Source: an uncultured bacterium (GTDB lineage Bacteria; Chloroflexota; UBA5177; JANWHV01). From it: a stretch of 64,000 nt of DNA. Made by a program: the position numbers and the translations under genes. Positions 3,001-32,986 of this stretch are shown in pieces. Numbering within the stretch: position 1 is the stretch's first letter; every line of letters begins with the position of its first letter. The stretch lies in the NCBI GenBank assembly GCA_963729625.1, contig CAVSOU010000008.1:576001-640000 (forward strand), written 5' to 3'. The notes beneath the pieces are model-generated. The model ran no database searches. It worked only from the letters and a program-made list of their open reading frames with translations, and was not told where the DNA came from.

Positions 3001-3708
3001 CGGCTGATGACCTTCGGGCCTGGCGGCTACGGCGCCACCGAGCAGGTTGGCGCGTCGGCGCCATCCAGCACCTGGCTGTTTGCCGAAGGCTCTACAGTGA
3101 ACAACTTCGAGACGTATTACACGATTCTCAACCCGAGCTCATCGCAGCTCGCCGCGGTCACGGCGACGTTCTTTGACCAGGCCGGCAACGTGTTGGCGAA
3201 CACGACAGTGCTGATCAATCCGCTGCGACGCGGCAACATCAAGGTCAACGATCTGCTGCGCTCGAGCGGTATCGCCACGATCCTCACCTCAAACATCCCG
3301 GTGGTGGCAGAGCGGCCCCTCTACTTCGGATCGCCGAATTCGTCCACCGCTGGGTCGGGGGGCAGTGACGTATTCGGACGCAACGGCGGCGGCGTGAGTT
3401 GGCTTTTCCCCGAGGGGAATACCAGCGCAGGGTACACGGAGTTTCTTCTCCTCCAGAATCCCAGCGCGCGGCCTGCGCCGGTGACCGTCCGCTTCTTCGA
3501 AACCAACGGCCAGACCGTCGACTACGGCGTGACGCTGCCCGGGAAGAGCCGGACCACCGTCGACGTGCTGCGGAATGTTCCCACGCTGCCGCCAGGATTG
3601 CACGGATCGATCGTGCAGTCGACGAACGGCGTGCCGATCATCGCGGAACAGAGCATCTATAGCGACAACTTCACAAAAGGTGATGGCGAAGCTGGAATCT
3701 CACAATAG
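1..3708 (+). CDS. Large secreted/surface protein with ~7 Ig-like (IPT/TIG-like) repeats and C-terminal WYxAEG (DUF5719-like) repeats; 5' end lies outside the window
   Basis: Frame is open from base 1 (AGLVLGLIVP, signal-peptide-like). Seven G-x-G-F/Y-xxx-E-x-V repeats and four C-terminal W(Y/L)(F/L)(A/P)(E/G)G repeats. Confidence 0.8.
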   Translation, partial: AGLVLGLIVPAANGTSQASAASAGAGVSDRSTVVDSATGRMYIVYGNVLHLVSTPQVLTVLGIAASSAVKLDSTQLAQLQEGAPLTLRETNGQTDPLSPVASGTASLTLSTASVPAGEPFSVQGAGFTPSEPVQLVFDFGQVSSTLHADATGVFSGTFVMPVSVTPAIIRVFAFGGLSKIMEIEPIAVLEKEGPPHLTASAAKLYPGDGVGVAGTGFQPYETVSIYFTAGGTSVETAADVRGAFTAQTVTAPATISPGSHSITASGKTSHHSTKVYVTIVARPIVKASLVVSPAETRAGQPIVLSGAGFLANELVHVRIGAAQAFDLRADGNGAFQNVRVSLSQSLAAGKATVSATGTSSQRSSIATLSIVAPLQTNAIPADGSLIRDQSTGRVYFIWGSVRHWIDSPAVLQTLGFSSASPVDLPSAAVTAIKNGATLGLTLVDGLVFPLAPVSNSGASLRLSEPSDTPGKVFTITGSRFAHFEAVQIVFAGAAQVVATDGSGNLTASLVVPGSAQPNSVLQVIVLGQASHVFAMEPFNVINAPATASLISQTPSVLQGAHAIVSGSGFLPNEQVNLFLGQTASAAPAQADQNGIFSSGALVVPPSLSVGSHSLMAYGLSSKRFAQGTITIVKPSLSPPTLSTDRTSVNPGSLVQVRGYNFAAHETVHVSFGSTLVLSLQSGSSGQFGPVGITIPTTTPAGSYTLSGTGGTSNSTATVTLTIVAYNPSISISPVYAIPGTRIAVGGNGYAAGEIVTLALNGQALATSPGQIKTGPAGAFSASFIVPPTALAGANTVAASGATSRASATMGLAVSLPVQSTWYFAGGNTAPGFDTEIALVNPNGAPTNVTFSFMFTSGSPMPYSMVVGADSRATVNVGSIVGAGRAVFTMLTADRKIGASETVFRNGQDFSSTSGASAPLRTWYLAEGYTGLSFHEYIRIFNPGIGQAHVDLRLLPFNGRPATSLIELLAAQTGTIVDVNAIESGLSLSAIVSSDQPVVVERLMTFGPGGYGATEQVGASAPSSTWLFAEGSTVNNFETYYTILNPSSSQLAAVTATFFDQAGNVLANTTVLINPLRRGNIKVNDLLRSSGIATILTSNIPVVAERPLYFGSPNSSTAGSGGSDVFGRNGGGVSWLFPEGNTSAGYTEFLLLQNPSARPAPVTVRFFETNGQTVDYGVTLPGKSRTTVDVLRNVPTLPPGLHGSIVQSTNGVPIIAEQSIYSDNFTKGDGEAGISQ

Positions 3709-3728
3709 ACCTAGCGAAGGGACCACGG

Positions 3729-6689
3729 ATGCATCAATCGCCGACCGTGTGGCTGCGCATCGCCGCGCTGGCAGCAGTCTGCACGCTGCCCTGTATGGAC
3801 CCGGCGAAGGCCGCATCGGCATTCGCACAAGCTCAGCCTGCCGCGGCTGTCGTGACTGTGACGACAAGCGCCCCGGCGGGACGCTACACGGTCGGCCAGC
3901 CGATCTCTGTCACCGTCTTGGAAAGCAATCCCAGCCAGTCCGAGCGCATCTACAGTCGCACCGAGTACCTGCTGGACTACTTTGGCAATGCTACCACCGT
4001 CGTCTCCGATACCATCGCCCTGGCAGCCGGCGAGAACTTGTCCAGCCCGGTCTCCGTTCCGATCGCGGGCTCCGGGTACTACGAGTATCACGTGACCCTC
4101 ACCGACCAGGCCACGCAGCAGCAGGTCACCGCCTTCGCGCCCATCGGCATAACTCGGCCGCAACCGGCAGGACTTGACCCGCAGTCGGCGTTCGGGATCA
4201 ACGGTACTCTGACCGAGGCCTATGGGACGAACGCCGCTGCCATGGCAAGCACGGCACAACTCATGGCGCAAGCGGGCATACGCTACGATCGCGAAGAGCT
4301 GCGCTGGGATCGCATCGAGCCGCACGCGGGCAGCGGTCAGTTCAACTTCGCGGCGACGGACGCGGCGATTGCAGCCGCGCACAACGCCGGCATTCAGGTG
4401 CTGGGATTGATCGACTACTGGGGCAGTCTGCCGCAGCCTGACACGACCGTCACCGTCACCGGCAGTTACACCATCACCGGTTGCAGCAAGACTCCAGCCT
4501 GCGCGTATACGCCGGCGGGTGACGCCATGTTCGCGAATTACGCGGCCGCCGTCGTCCATCGCTATATGCCCGGCGGCGCCCTCGCCACCCAGCAGGGCTG
4601 GGGAAACAGCTACGGTATCACGAATTGGGAAGTCTGGAACGAGCCTTCCACGCAGGCGTTCTGGCGGCACGATCTCACGGACTATGTCGCGCTCTTCGGC
4701 GGCCTCTACAAGGCCGCTTCGGTCGCCGTCCGGCAGGCCGATCCGAGCGCCAACGCGACGTATGACGAGAGCGGAACCGCCATCGACGCCGCGGTCAAGG
4801 CCGCGGGAGGAGTCTCGCAAATCCTGAGCGTGCACAGCTACAGTGGAGGGCTCGATCCCGACGCCGCGCTCAGCTCGCCCACGCTTCCCCGCGGCGGGCA
4901 GGGCACGGCGCCGGCGGCGATCGGCGCTATTGTCGCCCAGGGCTTGCCCGTGTGGATCACGGAGACCGGGTATCCGACCGACGGTACCGTGACCGCGCGC
5001 CAGCAGGCAGAGTACCTGGTGCGATCGTACGTGGACTTCCAGGCGCAGGGCGTCAAGAAGACCTTTTGGTTCAAGTTCCGTGAGGATGCCCCCGGGGGTG
5101 ACAACCTCTACGGAATAACCAGCCAGAACGGCGCTCTCAAGCCCGCATACGTGGCGTACTCCACCATGGCCCAGCACTTGCAGGACGCGACGTTCGTCTC
5201 CTCGGCCCAGGTTGGCACCGCGGTCCGCGCGTATCTTTACAGCCTGGTCGACGGTTCGACGGAAGCAGTGCTGTGGAGCACCGCGGAGAACGGCGCCATG
5301 ACCATTCCAGCCGGCAGTGGGGCCGCGATGAGCGCCGACGACATCATGGACAATCCGACCGGGCAGCTGACCGCGGCCGGGCTGACGTTGCCGCTCTCCG
5401 GCGACCCGGTGTTTCTCACCGTCAAGGGTATGGCGGCGGCCCAGATCAAGAACGCGCTCGAGCAGGCGCAGGTCACCGGCATCAACCCGGTCGGCTCCGT
5501 CGTGAGCATGGCGCCCGGACTGAGCAATGGTTTGCCGAACCTCAATGTGACGGTGTCCGCTCGCATCGACGTAGCGATTTCCGGCACGGTCGCGCTCAGC
5601 TTGCCGGTCGGCTGGGTCGCGCCGGTGGTGAGCAAGCGATTCGCCCTGCTGCAGCCCGGCCAGTCCACGTCGCTGAGCTTTCGCCTGAATGCGGAGGTTA
5701 ACCACCCGGACGACCATGTTGGCGCGACGGCTATCGCAACCACCGGCATCTCGAATACCGCCCGCATACCGGTGGCAGAGTATGCATTGACCTATGGCCA
5801 TCCGGCCATTGACGGCACGCTGGCGACCTGGGCCACGGCGTCGGAGGCCAGCTTGATCGAGCTGCGGCCCGACCAGATTGTGGGCATTCCCGGCTGGACG
5901 CCACAGAATCTCTCGGCGCGGATTTACACCATGTGGGACGAGCAGCACTTCTACTTCGCGGCCGACGTGAAGGACGAGACGTTCGACTATGCCCCGATCG
6001 GTTTCAACATGTACAAGGGCGACTCGATCCAGTTTGGCTGGGCAATGGATCCCGATGCCTGGCTGCGCAACGCGGGCAAGGGCAGGACAAACGTGGCGGT
6101 CGGCCTCACGCACCAGGGCCCGGCCAACTTTCAGTACAACCTCCTCGGTCCCTGGGTGGACATGAAGCAACAGATCGAGCCCGATCCTGCCAGCGGCGAT
6201 CTCATCTACACGGTAGCGGTCCCTTGGAGCCGCCTGGCCAAGTACGTACCGAAGATCGGCAAGCAGTTCGCCTTCGACGCGATCATCAACCAGAACGAAC
6301 ACGGGGTCCGGATCGGCTGGATACAGGTTACGCCTGGTATGGGCATCGGCTTCTATCCCTCGCAGTTTCCCCTGTGGAGCATAATCGGAAGCAACCCGGC
6401 TGCCGGTCTGCGGCTCGGCGGGCTGGTGGCGCCGGACCAGGGCGCGACCTCGTTCACGCTGCCCACGGCGCACGGCCAGCTGGTGATTCACAATGGAGGC
6501 ATGCGGACGATCTCGCTGCAGATCGACGGCGCGCCGCTCGTTCTCGGTCCCGCTGGGATCACGCTGGCGCCATCGGGCGATACCAGCGTGGACATTTCGC
6601 GCTACGTGCATGCCGGCACGAACACGGTGAGCGCCAGCGCCGTGGGCGTCACGAGAGCAGGGGCGGCGGTGCTCGCATTCTTCCAGTAG
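3729..6689 (+). CDS. Secreted clan GH-A glycoside hydrolase (GH39/GH5-like) with NEW3-like and CBM9-like domains
   Basis: Signal peptide ending AKA-A; acid/base VWNEP; nucleophile VWITETG; CBM9-like IDG..W / WDEQHFYFAADVKD / GDSIQF / YTVAVPW. Confidence 0.8.
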   Translation: MHQSPTVWLRIAALAAVCTLPCMDPAKAASAFAQAQPAAAVVTVTTSAPAGRYTVGQPISVTVLESNPSQSERIYSRTEYLLDYFGNATTVVSDTIALAAGENLSSPVSVPIAGSGYYEYHVTLTDQATQQQVTAFAPIGITRPQPAGLDPQSAFGINGTLTEAYGTNAAAMASTAQLMAQAGIRYDREELRWDRIEPHAGSGQFNFAATDAAIAAAHNAGIQVLGLIDYWGSLPQPDTTVTVTGSYTITGCSKTPACAYTPAGDAMFANYAAAVVHRYMPGGALATQQGWGNSYGITNWEVWNEPSTQAFWRHDLTDYVALFGGLYKAASVAVRQADPSANATYDESGTAIDAAVKAAGGVSQILSVHSYSGGLDPDAALSSPTLPRGGQGTAPAAIGAIVAQGLPVWITETGYPTDGTVTARQQAEYLVRSYVDFQAQGVKKTFWFKFREDAPGGDNLYGITSQNGALKPAYVAYSTMAQHLQDATFVSSAQVGTAVRAYLYSLVDGSTEAVLWSTAENGAMTIPAGSGAAMSADDIMDNPTGQLTAAGLTLPLSGDPVFLTVKGMAAAQIKNALEQAQVTGINPVGSVVSMAPGLSNGLPNLNVTVSARIDVAISGTVALSLPVGWVAPVVSKRFALLQPGQSTSLSFRLNAEVNHPDDHVGATAIATTGISNTARIPVAEYALTYGHPAIDGTLATWATASEASLIELRPDQIVGIPGWTPQNLSARIYTMWDEQHFYFAADVKDETFDYAPIGFNMYKGDSIQFGWAMDPDAWLRNAGKGRTNVAVGLTHQGPANFQYNLLGPWVDMKQQIEPDPASGDLIYTVAVPWSRLAKYVPKIGKQFAFDAIINQNEHGVRIGWIQVTPGMGIGFYPSQFPLWSIIGSNPAAGLRLGGLVAPDQGATSFTLPTAHGQLVIHNGGMRTISLQIDGAPLVLGPAGITLAPSGDTSVDISRYVHAGTNTVSASAVGVTRAGAAVLAFFQ

Positions 6690-25570: not shown

Positions 25571-27991
25571 CTACTTGCTCCAGAAATCGGCGATCTTGGC
25601 ATCAGCCACCACGGGAACGAGCGTGATAAGCTTCTCACCTGCCTTCACCATTTCGTGTTCCACGATCTTGCAGACGGCGTCTGCCTGGTCTTCAATGGCT
25701 TCCACCACGATCTCGTCGTGCACGGTGTTCACGACGCGTGCATCGTAGCCCTGCAAGGCTTCATTCAATCCGACCAGTGCCAGCTTTGTCATGTCAGCGT
25801 TTGCGCCTTGTATCGGCGAGTTCTTGCCCTGGCGTTCGATGCTGGCGCGCTTCTTGTTGTACTCGGGATCGTTCTGATCCAGCGGTGGATAGTAGCGTTT
25901 GCGGCCAAGGAGTGTGATGCTGTAACCTTTGCGAACGGCGTCTCGTCCCGCTTTGTCCAGCCAGCGCTGGATGCCGGCATAGGCCTTGAAGTACTGGTCG
26001 ATCAAGCGCCTTGCTTCCTCCGTGGAGACGCCGAGCTGGACGCCGAGGGCAGTCGGACCGCGGCCATACGCCAGGCCGAAATTGATCACCTTGGCGGCAC
26101 TGCGCTGCTGCTTGTCCACCAGGTCGGGCGGCACCTGGAACATCTGGCTGGCTGTCAGCCGATGCAGGTCTCCGCCGGACTGGAAGGCTTCGACGAACGC
26201 GGGATCCTCGCTGAGCTGGGCCAGAATGCGCAGCTCAGCCTGACTGTAGTCGCAGGTGATCAACTTGTAGCCGGGGGGCGGCACGAAGCATCCGCGAAAA
26301 TCGCTGGTAGCCGGGATCTGCTGGATGTTGGGATTTGTGCATGAGAAACGGCCGGTATCGGCGCCGATTTGGTTGAAGTCCGGGTGGATACGACCCGTCC
26401 TTTTATGAATCAGGTCGAGGAACTTCTCGCCGAACGCGGACAGCAGCTTCTCAAAACCGCGATACTCCAGCAGCTTCTTGATGGCAGGATGTTCGAACTT
26501 CATGAGGGTCGATTCCATCGTGTCCGGCAGGTTGATCCCCATGCGAGCAAATGTCTCCAGCAACTGGGCATTGCTGTTCAAGTTGATCGCCGGTCCACCG
26601 AAAAGTGATTGCTGGGGTACAGCATCGGCTACCAGCAGGCCCAGCTCATTGGCACAACGGTCGCGCTCGGCTTGGGCGGAATCGATGATCTTGCGCCAGC
26701 GATCCTGATCGATCAGGCAGCCTGCCAGCTCCATCTCGCCGACGGCGACCAGCGTCTTGAACTCGAGGGCAGCGACGTTCACCAGGAATTCACGGCGAAG
26801 GGCATCCCGTTGCTGCTTGTAGATAGTGAACAGCACGAGCGCGTCGCGCGCGGCATAGCGAAGCTGTTCCTCCGAGAACGCGCCGGACTTATCAACAAAG
26901 CTGGACCGCACGGATTTGTCCAGGGTGATGCCGGCATATTTCTGGGCCAGAGATACCAGCCCAATCTCACGGCTGATACCGGCCGTCAGGACGCGCTCGG
27001 CTAACATGGTGTCGTAGATACGCCGCGTGGTGATGCCGACCTGGCTGCGCAGCATCTTGTAGTCGAACTTGGCGTTCTGCATCAGCTTGAGCGTGCGGTC
27101 ATCCTCGAGAATGCGGCGGAGCGGACGCGGGTCAACCCTTCGCGCATCGACCAGATAGGCGCGGTCGGGCGTTGCCACCTGAACCAAGAGCAGTGCGTTC
27201 TCGGCGAACGGGTCCAGGCCCGTGGTTTCGGTATCCACGGCGACGATGGGCTCACCGGAGAGCAAAGCAATGACTTCTGCCAGCCGCGTCGGCTCGATGA
27301 TCAGCTCGAATTCGGCATTGACTGTTGCGACGCTGCCGGTATCGGGCCCACTATCCACGTCGAACAACGCTCCGGCATCATCGACCGTCACAACGTGCAC
27401 CGACGGCGCAGGCGCTGGCCCTTGCGGCGACGCGGGATCTTCTTGCACGGCTACGGGCTTGTCTTCGACAATGATCGGAGCCTCGACCGAGAGCTCGGGC
27501 AGATCGGCGAGCGCCAGCGCCGACGCCCGCTTGGCGAAGCCATTGCCGCGGCCATTCCCGTTGGTTGCACGTCTGGCTGGGGCAGGATCCTCGGGTTCCG
27601 GGTCGGCCCCCGCACGCAGTTGCGCCACCGGCGCGCGCTGTGCGGGGGGGTGCTTGACCGCATTCATGCTGCTCGCGTTTGGCTGCTCCGCAGTATGTTG
27701 CTCTACAACTGGGGCCACAGCCAGGCGGGCAAGGGCGAGCGCCTCGACCACCACGCGGTTGGGAATCTTGTAGACCACGCTGTCGAACGCCGCGTCGGGC
27801 GGGCGCTCGCCGCAAATCGGGCAAGCGGGAAGATCGGGATTGAAGGCAACCTCACAGGAGACGCAGGGCAGATACCGCTTCACGCGCGCGCCACACAAGG
27901 CGCAGGAGACGTCTTGACCGAACGGCAGCGTGTCCGGCAGGGCGGTCACCATGAGACAAATGGGGCACGTGACCTTACCGGCGGCGATCAT
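25571..27991 (-). CDS. Family A DNA polymerase (3'-5' exonuclease + polymerase, no 5'-3' nuclease) with an N-terminal 4xCxxC zinc-ribbon domain
   Basis: ExoI DTETTG, ExoII NAKFD, ExoIII YAARDA; motif A DYSQAELR, B RSAAKVINFGLAYG, C VHDE; N-terminal CPIC/CALC/CVSC/CPIC. Confidence 0.92.
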   Translation of the reverse strand: MIAAGKVTCPICLMVTALPDTLPFGQDVSCALCGARVKRYLPCVSCEVAFNPDLPACPICGERPPDAAFDSVVYKIPNRVVVEALALARLAVAPVVEQHTAEQPNASSMNAVKHPPAQRAPVAQLRAGADPEPEDPAPARRATNGNGRGNGFAKRASALALADLPELSVEAPIIVEDKPVAVQEDPASPQGPAPAPSVHVVTVDDAGALFDVDSGPDTGSVATVNAEFELIIEPTRLAEVIALLSGEPIVAVDTETTGLDPFAENALLLVQVATPDRAYLVDARRVDPRPLRRILEDDRTLKLMQNAKFDYKMLRSQVGITTRRIYDTMLAERVLTAGISREIGLVSLAQKYAGITLDKSVRSSFVDKSGAFSEEQLRYAARDALVLFTIYKQQRDALRREFLVNVAALEFKTLVAVGEMELAGCLIDQDRWRKIIDSAQAERDRCANELGLLVADAVPQQSLFGGPAINLNSNAQLLETFARMGINLPDTMESTLMKFEHPAIKKLLEYRGFEKLLSAFGEKFLDLIHKRTGRIHPDFNQIGADTGRFSCTNPNIQQIPATSDFRGCFVPPPGYKLITCDYSQAELRILAQLSEDPAFVEAFQSGGDLHRLTASQMFQVPPDLVDKQQRSAAKVINFGLAYGRGPTALGVQLGVSTEEARRLIDQYFKAYAGIQRWLDKAGRDAVRKGYSITLLGRKRYYPPLDQNDPEYNKKRASIERQGKNSPIQGANADMTKLALVGLNEALQGYDARVVNTVHDEIVVEAIEDQADAVCKIVEHEMVKAGEKLITLVPVVADAKIADFWSK

Positions 27992-28330
27992 GATTGTGAG
28001 GGCTCCCCGAGGAACAGTTATGGTGCAACGCGGACTCGACCGCCCGCACAACACATTGTACGAGCTAACACGGAACCCGTGGGTGGGCTTCTCCCCCTAC
28101 GTGGCAGTCTCCTCGGCGCGATCCTCGAGATTGCAGTTCTGTCACCGGGTGTCGACGGTTCGTGCATGATCACCTCCGAGCGCATTGCTACGCCAGGTCC
28201 ATGAGCGTAACGTGCGGTTGATTGCGAATATCGTGTGCTATGCTGGCATGAGAGCCGGACCGGAGGGGTCGCGCAACGCCGGCAAGCCCGCCGCGAACGC
28301 GGCGCTGCATCGAACGCGGGGAGTCGATCG

Positions 28331-29035
28331 ATGGGAAGTATGTTGGCACGGATGAACCAGCCCGATATGCGCTGGCCGCCCGATGACACCGAGGAGAGCG
28401 TCGTGGGTACGGATTGGCATCAGACGACGATTATGAACCTTCGCTGGGGGATCAACGAGATAGCGCGCGCGGACGCGGTCTCAGGTGAGCCTCTGCCGTG
28501 GCAGGCATCGGGGCAGATACTGATCACGGGATTCATCCGGCATGATAGCAGCCGGTACTCGGTGTTGCCTGATGTCTTCGTGTACCGCAAGCCGTTCGAG
28601 CGGGAACGCCAGTCTCTTTCGCTGCGGCGAAATGGGGTGCCGGCATTGATCGTCGAAGTGGCCAGCGAGTCGACCTGTGATGCCGATCTCGATCTGGCAA
28701 CGGGCAAGGGGTGGGCCTACGCGCACGCCGGCGTGCAGGAGTACCTGGTGGTCGATCCGTCCGGCCTCTACATGGAGGAACCGCTGTGCGCCTGGTATCT
28801 GGTCGAAGGCCAGTACCAAGAAGCGACGCTGGACTCCGACGGCATCTGGTGGAGCCGGGAGCTGCGCCTGGGTATCGGGTTTCCCGATGGGCAGGCCGCG
28901 GTCTACGATCGGGCTCGCCAGCGCCAGCTGCGAGAAGGCGAGATCTCCACATATATAGCACAGCAGCAGGCGGAGATCGTTCAGCAGCAGGCGGAGATCG
29001 CGGACCTGCGGCGTCGCCTCGACGAGCTCAAGTGA
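28331..29035 (+). CDS. Uma2 (DUF820) PD-(D/E)XK-like endonuclease with C-terminal coiled coil
   Basis: PDVFV, LIVEVASEST, YAHAGVQEYLVVDP. Confidence 0.88.
   Translation: MGSMLARMNQPDMRWPPDDTEESVVGTDWHQTTIMNLRWGINEIARADAVSGEPLPWQASGQILITGFIRHDSSRYSVLPDVFVYRKPFERERQSLSLRRNGVPALIVEVASESTCDADLDLATGKGWAYAHAGVQEYLVVDPSGLYMEEPLCAWYLVEGQYQEATLDSDGIWWSRELRLGIGFPDGQAAVYDRARQRQLREGEISTYIAQQQAEIVQQQAEIADLRRRLDELK
28961..29001 (+). repeat. 21-bp tandem duplication encoding QQQAEI(V/A)
   Basis: cagcagcaggcggagatcg occurs twice. Confidence 0.8.
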
Positions 29036-29066
29036 CGATTTCCGACAATCAGACAAGAGTGGTGTC

Positions 29067-29216
29067 GCCGCCGCCGCCGCCTACGAGCGGCATATACAGG
29101 CGCTGCTCCAAGATCGTGCCAGGATCGCCGAAGCAACAAAGGAGGTAGTTCCTCTCAGCATTGCGGACGGGCAGCAAGCCGTCAGGCTGGTGCGCGAGCG
29201 TGCACCAGAGTGGAGC
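29067..29216 (+). pseudogene. Remnant of an alpha/beta-hydrolase (xylan-esterase-like)
   Basis: Start-less frame reads ...EVVPLSIADGQQAVRLVRERAPEW, the segment that precedes the GFSAG nucleophile elbow in such esterases. Confidence 0.55.
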
Positions 29217-29328
29217 GGCCAGCCCTTGGCGTACGTGGAGGCTCTGTCATTGGAGCCGGGGGCCGCGTTTTGCTCCGGGCGCCGTCTGGCACGTATGATT
29301 TCGAGATTGCCAGGCTAGAGGGAACCAC

Positions 29329-30018
29329 ATGACGCTACAGCAACCTTCGCGCGCCGCGGAAGTGCGGGGCGGCACGACGGTAGAAAGTCTGCGTATCGAT
29401 CACCTGCGTGAGATCCTGGGGATAGGCGCCCGTCGGCCCCGCCTGTCCTGGACGGTAGCGACAACTGCCGCTGGATGGCATGCTCTCGGCGCGGTGGCAG
29501 ACTGGCTACATCGCACGGTAGCCGGCCTGGCGCCGCCGGCGCCAGGGTATCGGCGCCTGGACATCCATCCCATTCCTGGCACCGGCCTCACCGCCGCGCG
29601 AGCCCGGCACCTCACGCCATACGGCATCGCCGAGTCGTCCTGGACCTGGGATGCCGGACAGCTCACCGTAGCAGTGGTCATTCCGCCAAACACGACCGCG
29701 CAGGTCACCTTACCCGGTTCCAGCAGCGGTCCGGTCGAGGTCGGGTCCGGGCGCCACTCCTGGACGCTGGCATACAACCTGCCCATGGCATTGCCTCGCG
29801 ACCCAGCGACGAGATTGGACGAGGTGCTCAGCGGGCAGGACATGCTCCACGTCCTGCGGACGCTCCTGCAGGATTGTGCACCGACCACTGCGGCACGAAT
29901 TACGACGACCGCGATGATGCACTCGAGCCGAGACAGGACGCTTCGCGAAATTGTTGCCTCCCTACCGGGCGGACCGGCAGTGCTCGAGCGCATTGGGACC
30001 GGCGCGCGGTGCGCGTGA
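29329..30018 (+). pseudogene. Alpha-L-rhamnosidase (GH78) with a large in-frame internal deletion
   Basis: N-terminal LGIGARRPRLSW is joined directly to C-terminal HALGAVADWLHRTVAGL...TPYG...IPPNTTAQVTLP; the catalytic barrel is missing. Confidence 0.75.
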
Positions 30019-30109
30019 CCCCGCGCCTCAGCGCAGGAGACCATGCACTGCCGACGTTGTCTGCCGGCACTAGAATCATGTATGGGGAAGAGCATATACG
30101 ACCAAAGCA

Positions 30110-30193
30110 GTGGAAACGTTGCTGGAGATCTACGCTCTGCCGTTTACCAGCGCCATGAGCGACGGCCATGCCGGAGCCGTCATGGCGGCATAC
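30110..30193 (+). pseudogene. Short remnant of a GH3 beta-glucosidase
   Basis: ETLLEIYALPFTSAMSDGHAGAVMAAY resembles the GH3 consensus L-E-I-Y-L-P-F...G-x-V-M-x-A-Y. Confidence 0.5.
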
Positions 30194-30203
30194 CGCACCT
30201 TCA

Positions 30204-30256
30204 TCATCCAACTGTCATATCAGGATCATATGGCCATCATGGTGGTGGCCTATGCT
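30204..30256 (+). promoter_or_regulatory. Four TCAT direct repeats at 11-bp pitch followed by a TATGCT -10-like box (OmpR/PhoB-type promoter)
   Basis: TCATCC 30204, TCATAT 30215, TCATAT 30226, TCATGG 30237; TATGCT 30251. Confidence 0.55.
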
Positions 30257-30335
30257 GGACCTGTGCCGATGCAGGTAAGAAACGCCCGGTCAGGCGCCCT
30301 GCATCGGCCCAGCACTGATGTATCAGGGGAGATTG

Positions 30336-30731
30336 ATGATTACGGCAACGGAACGGCCCGCGCAGCCGGGCGCCGCCGGCGATATGGTGGCCCGGCCACG
30401 CGGCGACGTCGGCAAATCGACGCAACCTCGCGCGAGCGGTGGCGCTGCCGAGCAGCAGTTGCGCAGGAGCCAGGCGCTGCAGCGGCTGCCCGGCCTCAAG
30501 CAGAACATCGCCATGCTCAGCGTGGCGGCCTTCAGTGTCTTCAGCCTGCTGGTCGGCAGCCATCAAATCGGGAACGGCAGCGCGAGCGCGGCGACATCCG
30601 CGAGCCAGAATGGGAACGGCGCACAAGCGCAATCAAGCCAGGGAACCTCGGGGTACCTCAGTCAGAATCAAGGAGGCTATAGCTTTGGCTCAGGCGGTTC
30701 ATCGCCCGTTGCCGGATCCGGAACCTCCTGA
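30336..30731 (+). CDS. Small single-TM protein with Ser/Gly/Gln-rich tail ending SGTS (candidate ApbE substrate)
   Basis: GGGGAG RBS; hydrophobic IAMLSVAAFSVFSLLVG; low-complexity tail; first gene of the apbE operon. Confidence 0.7.
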   Translation: MITATERPAQPGAAGDMVARPRGDVGKSTQPRASGGAAEQQLRRSQALQRLPGLKQNIAMLSVAAFSVFSLLVGSHQIGNGSASAATSASQNGNGAQAQSSQGTSGYLSQNQGGYSFGSGGSSPVAGSGTS

Positions 30732-30750
30732 TCTGGATACACCTGCCGGC

Positions 30751-31734
30751 GTGGCGCGCGAGCGCTTCCACGCCATGGGCACGACGGTGTCGCTCCTGCT
30801 GCCGGAGGCGCGGGCAGGCGACGGCAGGCGGGCCGTCCAGGCGCTCTTCGAGGAGTGGGAGGAGACGCTCAGCCGCTTTCGACCCGACAGCGAGCTGTCG
30901 CGCCTCAATCGGAGCGCCGGCACGACGGTCGCGGTGAGCCCGCTGCTGTACCACGTGCTGCAGACGGCCCTGTCGGCAGCCGAAGCGACAGGAGGCGCCT
31001 ACGATCCGACACTGCAGCGCCAGATCGCGGAACTTGGCTACGACCGCACGTTCGACGATCTCATCACAACGCTGGAAGATGGCGGCAGCCTGCCTGAGCG
31101 CGTGACCGCGGAGGCAGCCCGGCCTCGGCCAGGCGGCGGCTGGCGCCGGATCAGGCTCGACCGGGAACGCGGCCGGGTCACGCTGCCCGAGGACGTCGGC
31201 GTGGATTTCGGAGGCATCGCCAAAGGGCTGGCGGTAGATGAGTCGCTCGTGCGGCTGAAGCTGATCGGCATCGAGGCGGCGATGGTCAACGCGGGTGGCG
31301 ACCTCGCCGTGCGCGGGCTGCCTCCACAGGCTGATTGCTGGCCCGTCGTGGTACAGGGTATCGGCCGTGCCTGGACCATCCCGCTGCGCAACGGCGCCAT
31401 TGCCACGTCGGGCGTCGCGCGCCGGCACTGGCGACGGGGAGGCAGCGAGCGCCATCACTTGCTCGATCCGGAAACCGGAATGCCGGCGGCGAGTGCGATG
31501 TGGGCCGTGACGGCAGTAGCCGGCGTCTGCGGTCAGGCCGAAGTGGCGGCGAAGACGGCATTCATCCGCGGCCCTGTCGGCGGTCGCGCGTTCCTCGAAT
31601 CGCACGGCTTGGCCGGGCTGCTGGTGCGGAGTGACGGCAGCTGGATCGTGGTCGGCAATTTGCTGCTTACCGATCTGGAGGAAGTTGGCTTACCGGGGCC
31701 AGGGTGGGGAGAATGGCGGATTGGAATCAGGTGA
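30751..31734 (+). CDS. apbE: FAD:protein FMN transferase, no signal peptide
   Basis: AMGT, LSRFRPDSELSRLN, DFGGIAKG, VNAGGD, IATSG, HHLLDPETG. Confidence 0.92.
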   Translation: MARERFHAMGTTVSLLLPEARAGDGRRAVQALFEEWEETLSRFRPDSELSRLNRSAGTTVAVSPLLYHVLQTALSAAEATGGAYDPTLQRQIAELGYDRTFDDLITTLEDGGSLPERVTAEAARPRPGGGWRRIRLDRERGRVTLPEDVGVDFGGIAKGLAVDESLVRLKLIGIEAAMVNAGGDLAVRGLPPQADCWPVVVQGIGRAWTIPLRNGAIATSGVARRHWRRGGSERHHLLDPETGMPAASAMWAVTAVAGVCGQAEVAAKTAFIRGPVGGRAFLESHGLAGLLVRSDGSWIVVGNLLLTDLEEVGLPGPGWGEWRIGIR

Positions 31735-32333
31735 CGTGGACAGTGGCCCGCGCCGGCGGTATGACGGCGTATGCGCTGGTCACCGCCTCGGTGGTGCTCG
31801 GCCTCGCGCTTTCAATGCGCTGGCAGCGGCCAAACTGGCCGCGCCTGATTACCAAAGAGCTGCACTCGTTCGTCACGCTGCTCAGCCTGGTGTTCGTGAT
31901 CGTGCATGTCGGCGCCGTGTGGATCGACCCGTACCTGAATTTCAGCTGGAACGAGGTGTTCGTGCCCTTTGCCAGTCACTATCGCCCCCTGTGGACGGCC
32001 TTGGGCATCGTATCGCTCTACTTGCTGCTCGCGGTGCGTATCAGCACGCAGATCCGACCGCTGATCGGACAGCCCTGGTGGCGACGGCTGCACGGCCTGG
32101 CCTTCGCCGTGTTCGCATTCTCTACTGTTCATGGTATGACAGCGGGAAGCGATATGCGCACGCCGTGGGCTATCGCCATGTACTGCACCGCCGTGCTGCT
32201 GGTGGGCGGGCTTCTGCAGGTGCGTCTCTTGACGCCGATCGGCGCGCGCGGTCGCACGTATCCGAACCTCGCCGCCGGAGCGCTGGTGTTCACATTGGGC
32301 TGCCTGGTGTGGACGCTGACCGCGCCCCTCTGA
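31713..32333 (+). CDS. Ferric-reductase-like (MsrQ-like) di-heme transmembrane protein
   Basis: WTVARAGG, four TM His (LH, VH, WRRLH, VH), GSD; no FAD/NAD domain. Confidence 0.88.
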   Translation: MADWNQVTWTVARAGGMTAYALVTASVVLGLALSMRWQRPNWPRLITKELHSFVTLLSLVFVIVHVGAVWIDPYLNFSWNEVFVPFASHYRPLWTALGIVSLYLLLAVRISTQIRPLIGQPWWRRLHGLAFAVFAFSTVHGMTAGSDMRTPWAIAMYCTAVLLVGGLLQVRLLTPIGARGRTYPNLAAGALVFTLGCLVWTLTAPL

Positions 32334-32437
32334 GGCGGAACTGTAGCGGAGAGTGAAGCCGAGGGCATGTGTCGGGCCGGAGAGCACGCCATGCCTCGGC
32401 CAGTGCGGAGCTCAGCCCCTCACCAGCCTGAAAACGG

Positions 32438-32986
32438 GTGTCCCTATCGTTCCCGTGGAGTTCGGTATACCGCCGAGGCAGTGCGCTGGGCGCGCATAGG
32501 GGATTGGCCACGCGTGAACGCCCGTTCAACGGAATGCGGCAGGCCGGCTATGGTACAGTGGAGCCGCATGGGTACGAGAGCGCAACGAGGGGCCGCGAGT
32601 GTGATTTCCTATGCAAGCGTGATCAAGTACTGCACTCAGACGCCCACCGGTTGGAGATCGACCTGCTGCGCGCCGGCACCCGGGCGCCGGACATACCGCA
32701 TGGCGCCGCTCACGCGGCGGTGTTGCATCGTGCAGGAACCCTCATGCTCGAGACCTTGATCGGAACGCTACGCGAGCCCCTGCCGACGATCGCCGTACCC
32801 TTGCGTGCACCGGTGGCCGATGTGCCGCTCGACCTGCAGGAACTGGTGGAGACCGTCTACGACCGCTATCGCTACGACGCGAGCGTCGAGTACGGAGACG
32901 ACCCGCCGCCACCCCAGTTGCCGGAACCGGATATCCGCTGGCTTCGGGAGCGCGTCGAAGCGTGGCAGCAGCCACGGAGCCCCTGA
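32438..32986 (+). pseudogene. DUF4058-like protein, N-terminally truncated or degenerate
   Basis: KR..VL.SD.H.LEIDLLRAG and LREPLPTIAVPLR...LDLQ...Y match the C-terminal half; no recognisable MPSPFPGMDP-type N-terminus. Confidence 0.6.

Follow-up and report, generated by a model that had tools for sequence, protein, structure and literature searches.

A conserved terminal serine as a candidate FMN acceptor in a small membrane protein encoded with ApbE and a cytochrome b in Chloroflexota

We analyzed a window of 64,000 nucleotides (positions 576,001 to 640,000 of contig CAVSOU010000008.1, assembly GCA_963729625.1) from an uncultured bacterium of the phylum Chloroflexota, whose assembly comprises 5.4 Mb and is 87% complete. 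At positions 30336-32333 of this window, three coupled genes lie head to tail on the + strand, encoding a small single-pass transmembrane (TM) protein, a member of the ApbE family of transferases that attach flavin mononucleotide (FMN) to proteins, and a ferric-reductase-like cytochrome b. The main finding is that the small protein, like every one of its syntenic counterparts, ends in serine, and we lean towards the reading, drawn from sequence comparison, that this terminal residue acts as a domain-less ApbE acceptor, replacing the FMN_bind subunit of MsrQ-like systems. The original prediction for this DNA had described a tight operon of a 131-residue single-TM protein with a Ser/Gly/Gln tail ending in PVAGSGTS before the stop codon, an ApbE and a four-histidine membrane protein, and the operon is indeed present where it had been placed. 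The three-gene arrangement is real and strongly non-random, as the module recurs in dozens of genomes, far beyond what chance would produce.

The small membrane protein and its conserved C-terminus

The first gene (30336..30731, + strand) encodes 131 residues when read from the ATG at 30336, which has the sequence GGGGAG located 4 nucleotides upstream; a later start, e.g., the TTG at 30459, is possible. The G+C content at third codon positions is 0.80 in 30459-30684, matching the values of 0.80 and 0.82 found for the adjoining genes. The protein matched no Pfam or NCBIfam family, and its syntenic homologues include sequences with 65% (genome G001) and 48% (genome G002) identity. It has a single hydrophobic segment, residues 51-76 (30486..30563, + strand), with a Kyte-Doolittle maximum of 1.82. 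AlphaFold2, supplied with a 55-row alignment, predicted helices at residues 37-49 and 51-76, the latter with a predicted local distance difference test score (pLDDT) of approximately 90; this TM helix ends at a widely conserved histidine (VGSHQIG), and residues F66 and L72 are nearly invariant in the 55-sequence alignment. The tail that follows, residues 77-131 (30564..30728, + strand), is predicted to be disordered and extracytoplasmic: it has a Ser/Gly/Gln/Asn composition without a single Lys, Arg, Asp or Glu, and was modelled without secondary structure (pLDDT of approximately 50-55). Hydropathy and structure prediction agree, in support of the earlier description of one TM helix and a disordered tail. 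The short motifs SGYL and QGGYSFG stand along this tail before the C-terminal motif, which in the family is preceded by GGFF and GFG.

Regarding topology, nine Lys/Arg residues lie within positions 1-57 of the window's protein, and over the 61 other loci the average is 7.7 Lys/Arg in the 40 residues before the TM helix vs. 1.3 in the tail (mean length of 68 residues). This positive-inside bias predicts that the N-terminus is inside and the tail outside. The twin-arginine translocation (Tat) signal that had been tentatively suggested at LRRSQAL found no support in the family, as the consensus at that site is R-M-P-K-A-x-A-L and the closest relatives carry RK or SK. At one locus of a near-complete genome (L042 in G028), the small gene is seemingly split across two frames (3460-3798 and 3590-3790), with the TM helix in one and a tail ending in LRSHGS in the other, which may represent a frameshift or an assembly error; similar breaks were observed at loci L058 and L090.

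The C-terminal motif PVAGSGTS (30705..30728, + strand) puts the candidate FMN acceptor at the very last residue, Ser131, whose codon TCC (30726-30728) is immediately followed by the stop codon TGA (30729-30731). C-termini were counted over the window and 61 loci (n = 62), which together hold 52 distinct octamers. The last residue is serine in 62 of 62 proteins, with TCC (35), TCG (16), TCA (6) and TCT (5) as codons and TGA (44), TAG (11) or TAA (7) as stops. The Ser content of the tail background is 22%, and the terminal serine is the sole invariant column of the 55-sequence family alignment, in which the mean column identity is also 22%. Moreover, a profile search of a collection of 5.8 billion proteins returned 31 matches, all of them annotated as hypothetical and lacking Pfam families, and the independently called homologues retrieved from these matches end in serine as well (30 out of 30). 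Going upstream, position -1 is mostly occupied by V (24), T (19), A (11) or G (5), position -2 is free (S 18, G 14, R 12, H 9, and others), and position -3 is Ser or Thr in 61 of the 62 proteins, being Ser in the window. Position -4 is Gly in 45/62 and position -5 Ser or Thr in 46/62, while the five most common residues at position -6 (V 31, A 11, S 7, F 4, M 4) account for 57/62; Pro at -7 (52/62) and Gln at -9 (37/62) are also frequent. The resulting family consensus is P-[VA]-[ST]-G-[ST]-x-[VTA]-S-COOH.

When set against the canonical flavinylation motif, D-x-x-[ST]-G-A-[ST], the family matches the acceptor Ser and the [ST] at -3, and the window's own motif has Gly at -2 and Thr at -1. A conserved SG[A/G/T]S terminus, as originally expected, was thus found only in part: the terminal Ser and the Ser/Thr at -3 are conserved, but Gly at -2 is not, and the conserved glycine is located at -4 instead. 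Endings of the SGxS form occur only in the genus of the window (SGTS, SGAS) and in several deep lineages (SGGS, SGAS). The terminal serine of a domain-less peptide therefore withstood the conservation test as a candidate ApbE acceptor, whereas the exact SGxS form proposed for it did not. By way of analogy, class IIb microcins carry their modification on a conserved C-terminal serine of a Ser/Gly-rich tail.

The end of the small gene also carries the beginning of apbE. The most likely apbE start is the TTG at 30685, 8 nucleotides after AAGGAGG, which gives a 47-nucleotide overlap in the +1 frame, the first 15 apbE codons coinciding with the end of the small gene. The Shine-Dalgarno (SD) sequence (30670-30676) and the start codon (30685-30687) make 30670..30687 (+ strand) a dual-coding stretch, whose bases also serve as the Q-G-G...F-G codons of the small gene. 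In 25 of the 62 loci, an ATG or TTG located 47-68 nucleotides upstream of the small-gene stop is preceded, at a distance of 5-11 nucleotides, by a strong SD of at least GGAGG (in one case AGGAG), and apbE is translationally coupled to the small gene. The upstream QGG..FG motif may in part reflect constraint at the nucleotide level; loci without overlap also keep the GFG motif. As to the last eight residues, the possibility that their conservation is a by-product of the apbE frame, or of its SD and start, was considered and ruled out. In 17 loci, apbE lies wholly downstream of the small-gene stop, with its own start and in any of the three frames, and in six of these an in-frame stop at or after the small-gene stop forces a downstream apbE start. 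All 17 retain the [ST]-x-[VTAF]-S ending. This comparison therefore indicates that the terminal motif is under selection at the protein level.

To determine the distribution of the module, one genome per species was scanned with a six-sequence cytochrome alignment, and the best 80 of 135 relatives were retained. By their labels, 78 of these 80 loci belong to Chloroflexota (Ktedonobacterales, Ktedonobacter, Dictyobacter, Limnocylindria and Chloroflexia), the other two having vague or doubtful labels, and cultured carriers of the module are found in Ktedonobacter racemifer and Dictyobacter species. The apbE gene is located directly upstream of the cytochrome gene in 65 of the 80 loci, four of which are cut by a contig end, and in all 61 loci with an intact ApbE start a TM-encoding open reading frame (ORF) ends 17-160 nucleotides before the ApbE domain. 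The same gene order is found in three loci of family f3 (G007, G015 and G016), where the small protein ends in SGAS or SGGS, and in four more distant loci (G032, G035 twice, and G037), with the endings SGGS, SGGS, SHVS and TGSS.

The remaining 15 loci encode paralogous cytochromes without apbE, and 12 of them keep the small protein and its motif directly upstream, with endings such as PSSGSGVS, or PVSGSHVS in three genomes of Ktedonobacter in which the triple is present as well; Ktedonobacter racemifer DSM 44963, for example, carries both a triple (locus L114) and an apbE-less pair (locus L106). Persistence of the small protein where apbE is absent suggests that the tail belongs functionally to the cytochrome, and that the acceptor could be served in trans. 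Judged by gene order, the small protein is a companion of the cytochrome, and most copies have apbE interposed. No cluster of the FMN_bind kind was found among the 16 listed clusters of genes recurring in the 80 loci. The sole recurrent neighbours of the module are an OmpR-type response regulator (27/80 loci) and a histidine kinase (25/80), and in several of the paralogous loci a small His/Gly-rich TM protein is encoded 3' of the cytochrome.

ApbE, the cytochrome b and the surroundings of the operon

The apbE gene (30685..31734, + strand) encodes 349 residues when read from the TTG at 30685, and its product belongs to the family of FAD:protein FMN transferases (FAD, flavin adenine dinucleotide). 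It matches PF02424 with an E-value of 1.4e-56 (192 bits vs. a cut-off of 25.6), and 13 solved ApbE/Ftp chains in the PDB match it with E-values of 1.7e-24 to 1.3e-13. Its score against the NCBIfam equivalog NF007774 is 64 bits vs. a cut-off of 498, so that it is not an equivalog of the E. coli type. Active-site residues were mapped by a gap-free HMMER alignment to the Ftp protein of Treponema pallidum (Ftp_Tp, 4ifu), in which the equivalents of Ser240, Arg245 and His256 are kept and Glu244 is replaced by Arg; an HH motif is encoded at 31453-31458.

Absence of a signal peptide in this ApbE, as noted in the original prediction, was confirmed, since no hydrophobic N-terminus is present (the best 19-residue window in the first 60 residues scores 0.59). 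In six loci, in addition, an in-frame stop excludes any N-terminal extension of ApbE. Being leaderless is not a peculiarity of the operon. The assembly holds two ApbE genes (a third may be missing from it at 87% completeness), and the second one (contig C7, locus L127, 5540-6833, - strand), located directly behind the gene for a secreted FMN_bind protein whose SGAT motif is canonical, also encodes a leaderless enzyme, with a canonical D-x-x-x-T metal site. Cytoplasmic ApbEs are known (reviewed in PMC12052999), and any mechanism that allows the organism's leaderless ApbEs to act on exported substrates would apply to the tail too. It had also been stated that no folded substrate is present, which is correct for the locus but not for the genome, where five FMN_bind proteins are encoded elsewhere, each with an N-terminal signal or anchor and the motif [VI]SGAT[YM]TS.

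The third gene (31704..32333, + strand) encodes the short form of a cytochrome b of 206-209 residues, with six hydrophobic segments. ATG 31713 is its likely start, and with either start (31704 or 31713) the gene overlaps the 3' end of apbE. His54, His68, His130 and His143 (codons at 31863, 31905, 32091 and 32130, + strand) are invariant in 55 of 55 aligned relatives, and their arrangement as two pairs on two helices, spaced by 13-14 residues, fits the predicted binding of two b haems. The sequence stays below all Pfam thresholds, with no PF01794 match at E-values up to 0.01 and only a weak match to Ni_hydr_CYTB; relatives at 46-47% identity reach PF01794 (Ferric_reduct) with 31.7-36.2 bits vs. 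a cut-off of 28, as does the cousin cytochrome in G035 with 35.2 bits. No FAD/NAD (nicotinamide adenine dinucleotide) or FMN_bind domain was found in the window's cytochrome, and its earlier description as a four-histidine, ferric-reductase-like protein devoid of such domains holds, the Pfam match being reached only through relatives. Positive charges, as read from the sequence, are located in loops 1, 3 and 5, which suggests an N-out, C-out topology, with His54/His130 ligating the inner haem and His68/His143 the outer one. No flavinylation motif was seen, by eye in the alignment, in the cytochrome or in the C-terminal domain of its long forms.

These long forms, of 350-412 residues, represent approximately half of the relatives. 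AlphaFold2 modelled one of them (locus L050, 4001-5125) with six TM helices (overall pLDDT of 83), and its residues 250-366, following TM6, were predicted as an extracytoplasmic eight-strand barrel that belongs to no Pfam family and is absent from the window's short form. The nearest structures to the barrel are 2q03, an uncharacterised Shewanella protein (Z 9.4), the pyocyanin demethylase 5k21 (Z 8.8), Diels-Alderase barrels and avidins, with Z values only modestly above the level reached by unmatched models. The model supports calling it a small-ligand-type barrel, and no more; such a barrel might offer a pocket to a planar ligand, e.g., a tethered flavin. A Foldseek search of the PDB with the long-form model gave nothing at E-values of 0.001 or below, a weak row to STEAP2 (probability 0.69, E-value 0.096) being a lead only, and the ESM Atlas gave unnamed clusters only.

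Within 29900-32700, neither a sigma-70-like promoter nor an intrinsic terminator was found. The operon is flanked by apparent gene remnants (28235-30018 and 32438-32986): an ORF of 229 residues joins only the N-terminal Ig and the C-terminal pieces of an alpha-L-rhamnosidase, a DUF4058 ORF spans only profile positions 132-253 of 254, and an ORF of the Uma2 family is also found there. Further upstream, an ORF of 827 residues (25571-28054, - strand) has, by eye from its translation, the look of a DNA polymerase I-type protein, with an N-terminal extension that is rich in Cys and resembles a zinc ribbon, and with a long linker of low complexity.

Proposed mechanism and competing explanations

With the terminal serine as acceptor, the products of the three genes would form a minimal conduit for electrons across the membrane, the tail taking the place of the usual folded flavin subunit. 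With FAD as the donor, ApbE would attach FMN to the last serine through its hydroxyl, [ST]-x-[VTA]-S-COOH being a diverged, terminal version of [ST]-G-A-[ST], and the TM helix of the small protein would pack against the cytochrome. Electrons from quinol or a cytoplasmic donor would enter at the inner haem (His54/His130), pass to the outer haem (His68/His143) and from there to the tethered FMN, which would in turn reduce some extracytoplasmic acceptor; in the cousin operon, the donor would be a NuoF-like protein with a ferredoxin. The tail could be modified in the cytoplasm before translocation, or ApbE could be exported by another route. In a more specific version, which we put forward as speculation and consider doubtful, the leaderless ApbE would place FMN on the last residue in the cytoplasm, and the flavin-bearing end would then be threaded across the membrane. 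Once outside, the flavin would move back and forth between the outer haem and acceptors that lie within the cell wall or beyond it, as a "diffusible" shuttle on a tether. The leash would measure 55-95 residues, and by arithmetic the 55 residues of the window's tail correspond to a contour length of approximately 20 nm.

Several observations weigh against the proposal of a terminal acceptor. In Ftp_Tp, the two Mg sites have Asp284 and Thr288 among their first-sphere ligands, and the substitution D284A or T288A abolishes the activity of the enzyme (PMC4436053); in the window's ApbE, the equivalent positions are Glu and Lys290 (31552-31554). The pattern E/D-x-x-x-K is found in 65 of 65 module ApbEs and in nine of 11 more distant ones, the other two having Thr, and the chemistry of this clade, with its altered metal site, may be different. 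An idea that Lys290 pairs with the terminal carboxylate of the substrate was considered as well, and is weakened by the two distant module ApbEs that have Thr. Moreover, ApbE carries no signal peptide and the tail is predicted to be outside, the five canonical FMN_bind proteins could be served by either ApbE of the genome, and the short-form system shows no evident folded pocket by which the flavin could be shielded or tuned. At the level of the motif, the canonical Gly at -2 (14/62) and Ala at -1 (11/62) are in the minority, and Asp is absent from the five most common residues at -6. In addition, the small ORF was picked by eye in the 61 loci, and in L058 and L090 it is split or has no TM segment in frame. 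Among the 15 loci without apbE, L087 has a Ser-ended protein with another motif, and L085 and L104 have no clear small ORF.

Overall, the terminal serine as acceptor is the most economical reading, and its main rival is that the small protein serves the cytochrome as an accessory or assembly subunit without being flavinylated itself, while the operon's ApbE flavinylates FMN_bind proteins encoded elsewhere, which dock on the cytochrome. We regard this as unlikely, yet deserving of serious attention: the genome encodes five secreted FMN_bind proteins with canonical SGAT motifs vs. only two ApbE genes, the small protein stays with the cytochrome where apbE is absent, and the canonical motif is only partly matched. 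An accessory role, however, leaves unexplained why the last residue alone is invariant in an otherwise freely drifting tail, and why, in 65 of 80 loci, apbE occupies precisely the place between the small gene and the cytochrome gene and is translationally coupled. No FMN_bind gene is found in the neighbourhood of the module, nor among the listed recurrent clusters.

A second explanation, which we hold to be improbable, takes the conserved C-terminus as a docking or processing element, or as the site of another modification; it could, for instance, insert into the outer face of the cytochrome or into the barrel of the long forms. Indeed, P-V-S-G-S-x-V-S, together with GGFF and GFG, resembles short linear binding motifs, and the predicted barrel is of a ligand-binding type. 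Short forms such as the window's, however, keep the motif without having the barrel, and the only enzyme consistently encoded alongside is ApbE, which acts on Ser/Thr hydroxyls.

Less probable still is that the module's ApbE clade consists of flavin-trafficking or FAD-hydrolysing enzymes that supply flavin, and not of protein flavin transferases. Ftp-type enzymes do have FAD pyrophosphatase activity (PMC4436053), and the replacement of Asp284 by Glu and of Thr288 by Lys throughout the 65 module ApbEs would fit such a change in function. On the other hand, the equivalents of His256, Ser240 and Arg245 are kept, the two distant module ApbEs with Thr still pair with SGGS-ended proteins, and hydrolysis of FAD in the cytoplasm would leave the invariant serine unexplained.

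Finally, fusion of the small ORF and apbE into one gene by a +1 frameshift at UCC-UGA, yielding a membrane-anchored extracytoplasmic ApbE, would account for the missing signal peptide and agrees with the +1 frame of apbE in most loci and with TCC and TGA being the most common serine codon and stop (35 and 44 of 62), but it is largely refuted, and we give it hardly any credence, given the 25 of 62 loci with a strong SD and apbE start within the small ORF, the 17 loci where apbE lies downstream in any frame with its own start, and the small proteins that occur without apbE beside paralogous cytochromes.

Implications and comparison with known systems

If the terminal serine is flavinylated, the small protein would open a new class of substrates for ApbE, namely a "flavin-tag" of natural origin without a flavin-binding fold, which would explain why some ApbE genes lack a recognisable partner. 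The module would then also be the smallest natural unit for trans-membrane electron export, consisting of two haems and one tethered flavin, and it would raise the concrete question by what means the membrane is passed, whether by a flavinylated chain end or by a leaderless ApbE. As Ktedonobacter racemifer and Dictyobacter species are harmless and available in culture, the claim is directly testable. According to their accounts of the searches, published surveys of flavinylation looked for FMN_bind, DUF2271, DUF3570, FMN_red or flavodoxin domains, and discarded ApbE and FMN-bind genes without a signal peptide (PMC8238504, PMC11334425); domain-based searches combined with such a filter would have missed an acceptor of the tail type. 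In the second survey, Ktedonobacter is mentioned only for an Nqr/Rnf-like complex (PMC11334425). Our literature search, which did not cover the cluster tables of PMC8238504, returned no description of a natural domain-less ApbE acceptor.

The closest described systems are the MsrQ-like clusters reported by Meheust et al. (2021, eLife, PMC8238504), which comprise apbE, an FMN-binding protein and a PF01794 protein, often with an NAD-binding domain or a NuoF-like protein, and which occur mostly in Actinobacteria. Their PF01794 protein has six helices and two haems, and was proposed to carry electrons outward to the flavin (PMC8238504). As in these clusters, apbE in the window adjoins the gene for a membrane protein with six predicted helices and two predicted haems, whose relatives reach PF01794. 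In contrast to what is described for them, however, the operon has no gene for an FMN-binding domain, a domain-less tail protein being found in its place. Moreover, its cytochrome lacks an NAD-binding domain, its ApbE is leaderless and its host belongs to the Chloroflexota. The two arrangements come closest at the G035 locus, where the genes for a histidine kinase, a small SGGS-ended protein, ApbE, a PF01794 protein, a Complex1_51K/PF10589 protein and a Fer4_15 ferredoxin follow each other. This order corresponds to the NuoF-like MsrQ subtype as described, with the small SGGS-ended protein standing where the FMN-binding gene would be.

With respect to the acceptor itself, ApbE is reported to need only a linear motif of seven residues, to work best at termini, and to tolerate the changes D-to-A, G-to-A and A-to-V in the motif, the effect of D-to-A being minor (reviewed in PMC12052999). 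The candidate described here is similar to the engineered flavin-tag (Tong et al. 2021, in PMC12052999), a short linear peptide that requires no folded flavin domain and performs best at a terminus. That tag is man-made and follows D-x-x-[ST]-G-A-[ST], whereas our candidate is natural and its motif has diverged to P-V-S-G-S-x-V-S, with the putative acceptor being the very last residue of a membrane-tethered, disordered tail. A flavinylation site on an unstructured C-terminal extension has been reported for the FMN_red protein of Lactococcus (Huang et al. 2024, PMC11334425), a position comparable to that of the candidate acceptor on its disordered extension; in that protein, however, the tail folds back onto its own flavin-binding site, and the window's system has no such domain. 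Lastly, the same genome offers a comparison in the FMN_bind (PF04205)/ApbE pair of contig C7, which shares with the operon the order of substrate and then ApbE, a leaderless ApbE, and an exported or anchored substrate, and differs from it in the folded domain of that substrate, in its internal [VI]SGAT[YM]TS motif, and in the D-x-x-x-T metal site of its ApbE.

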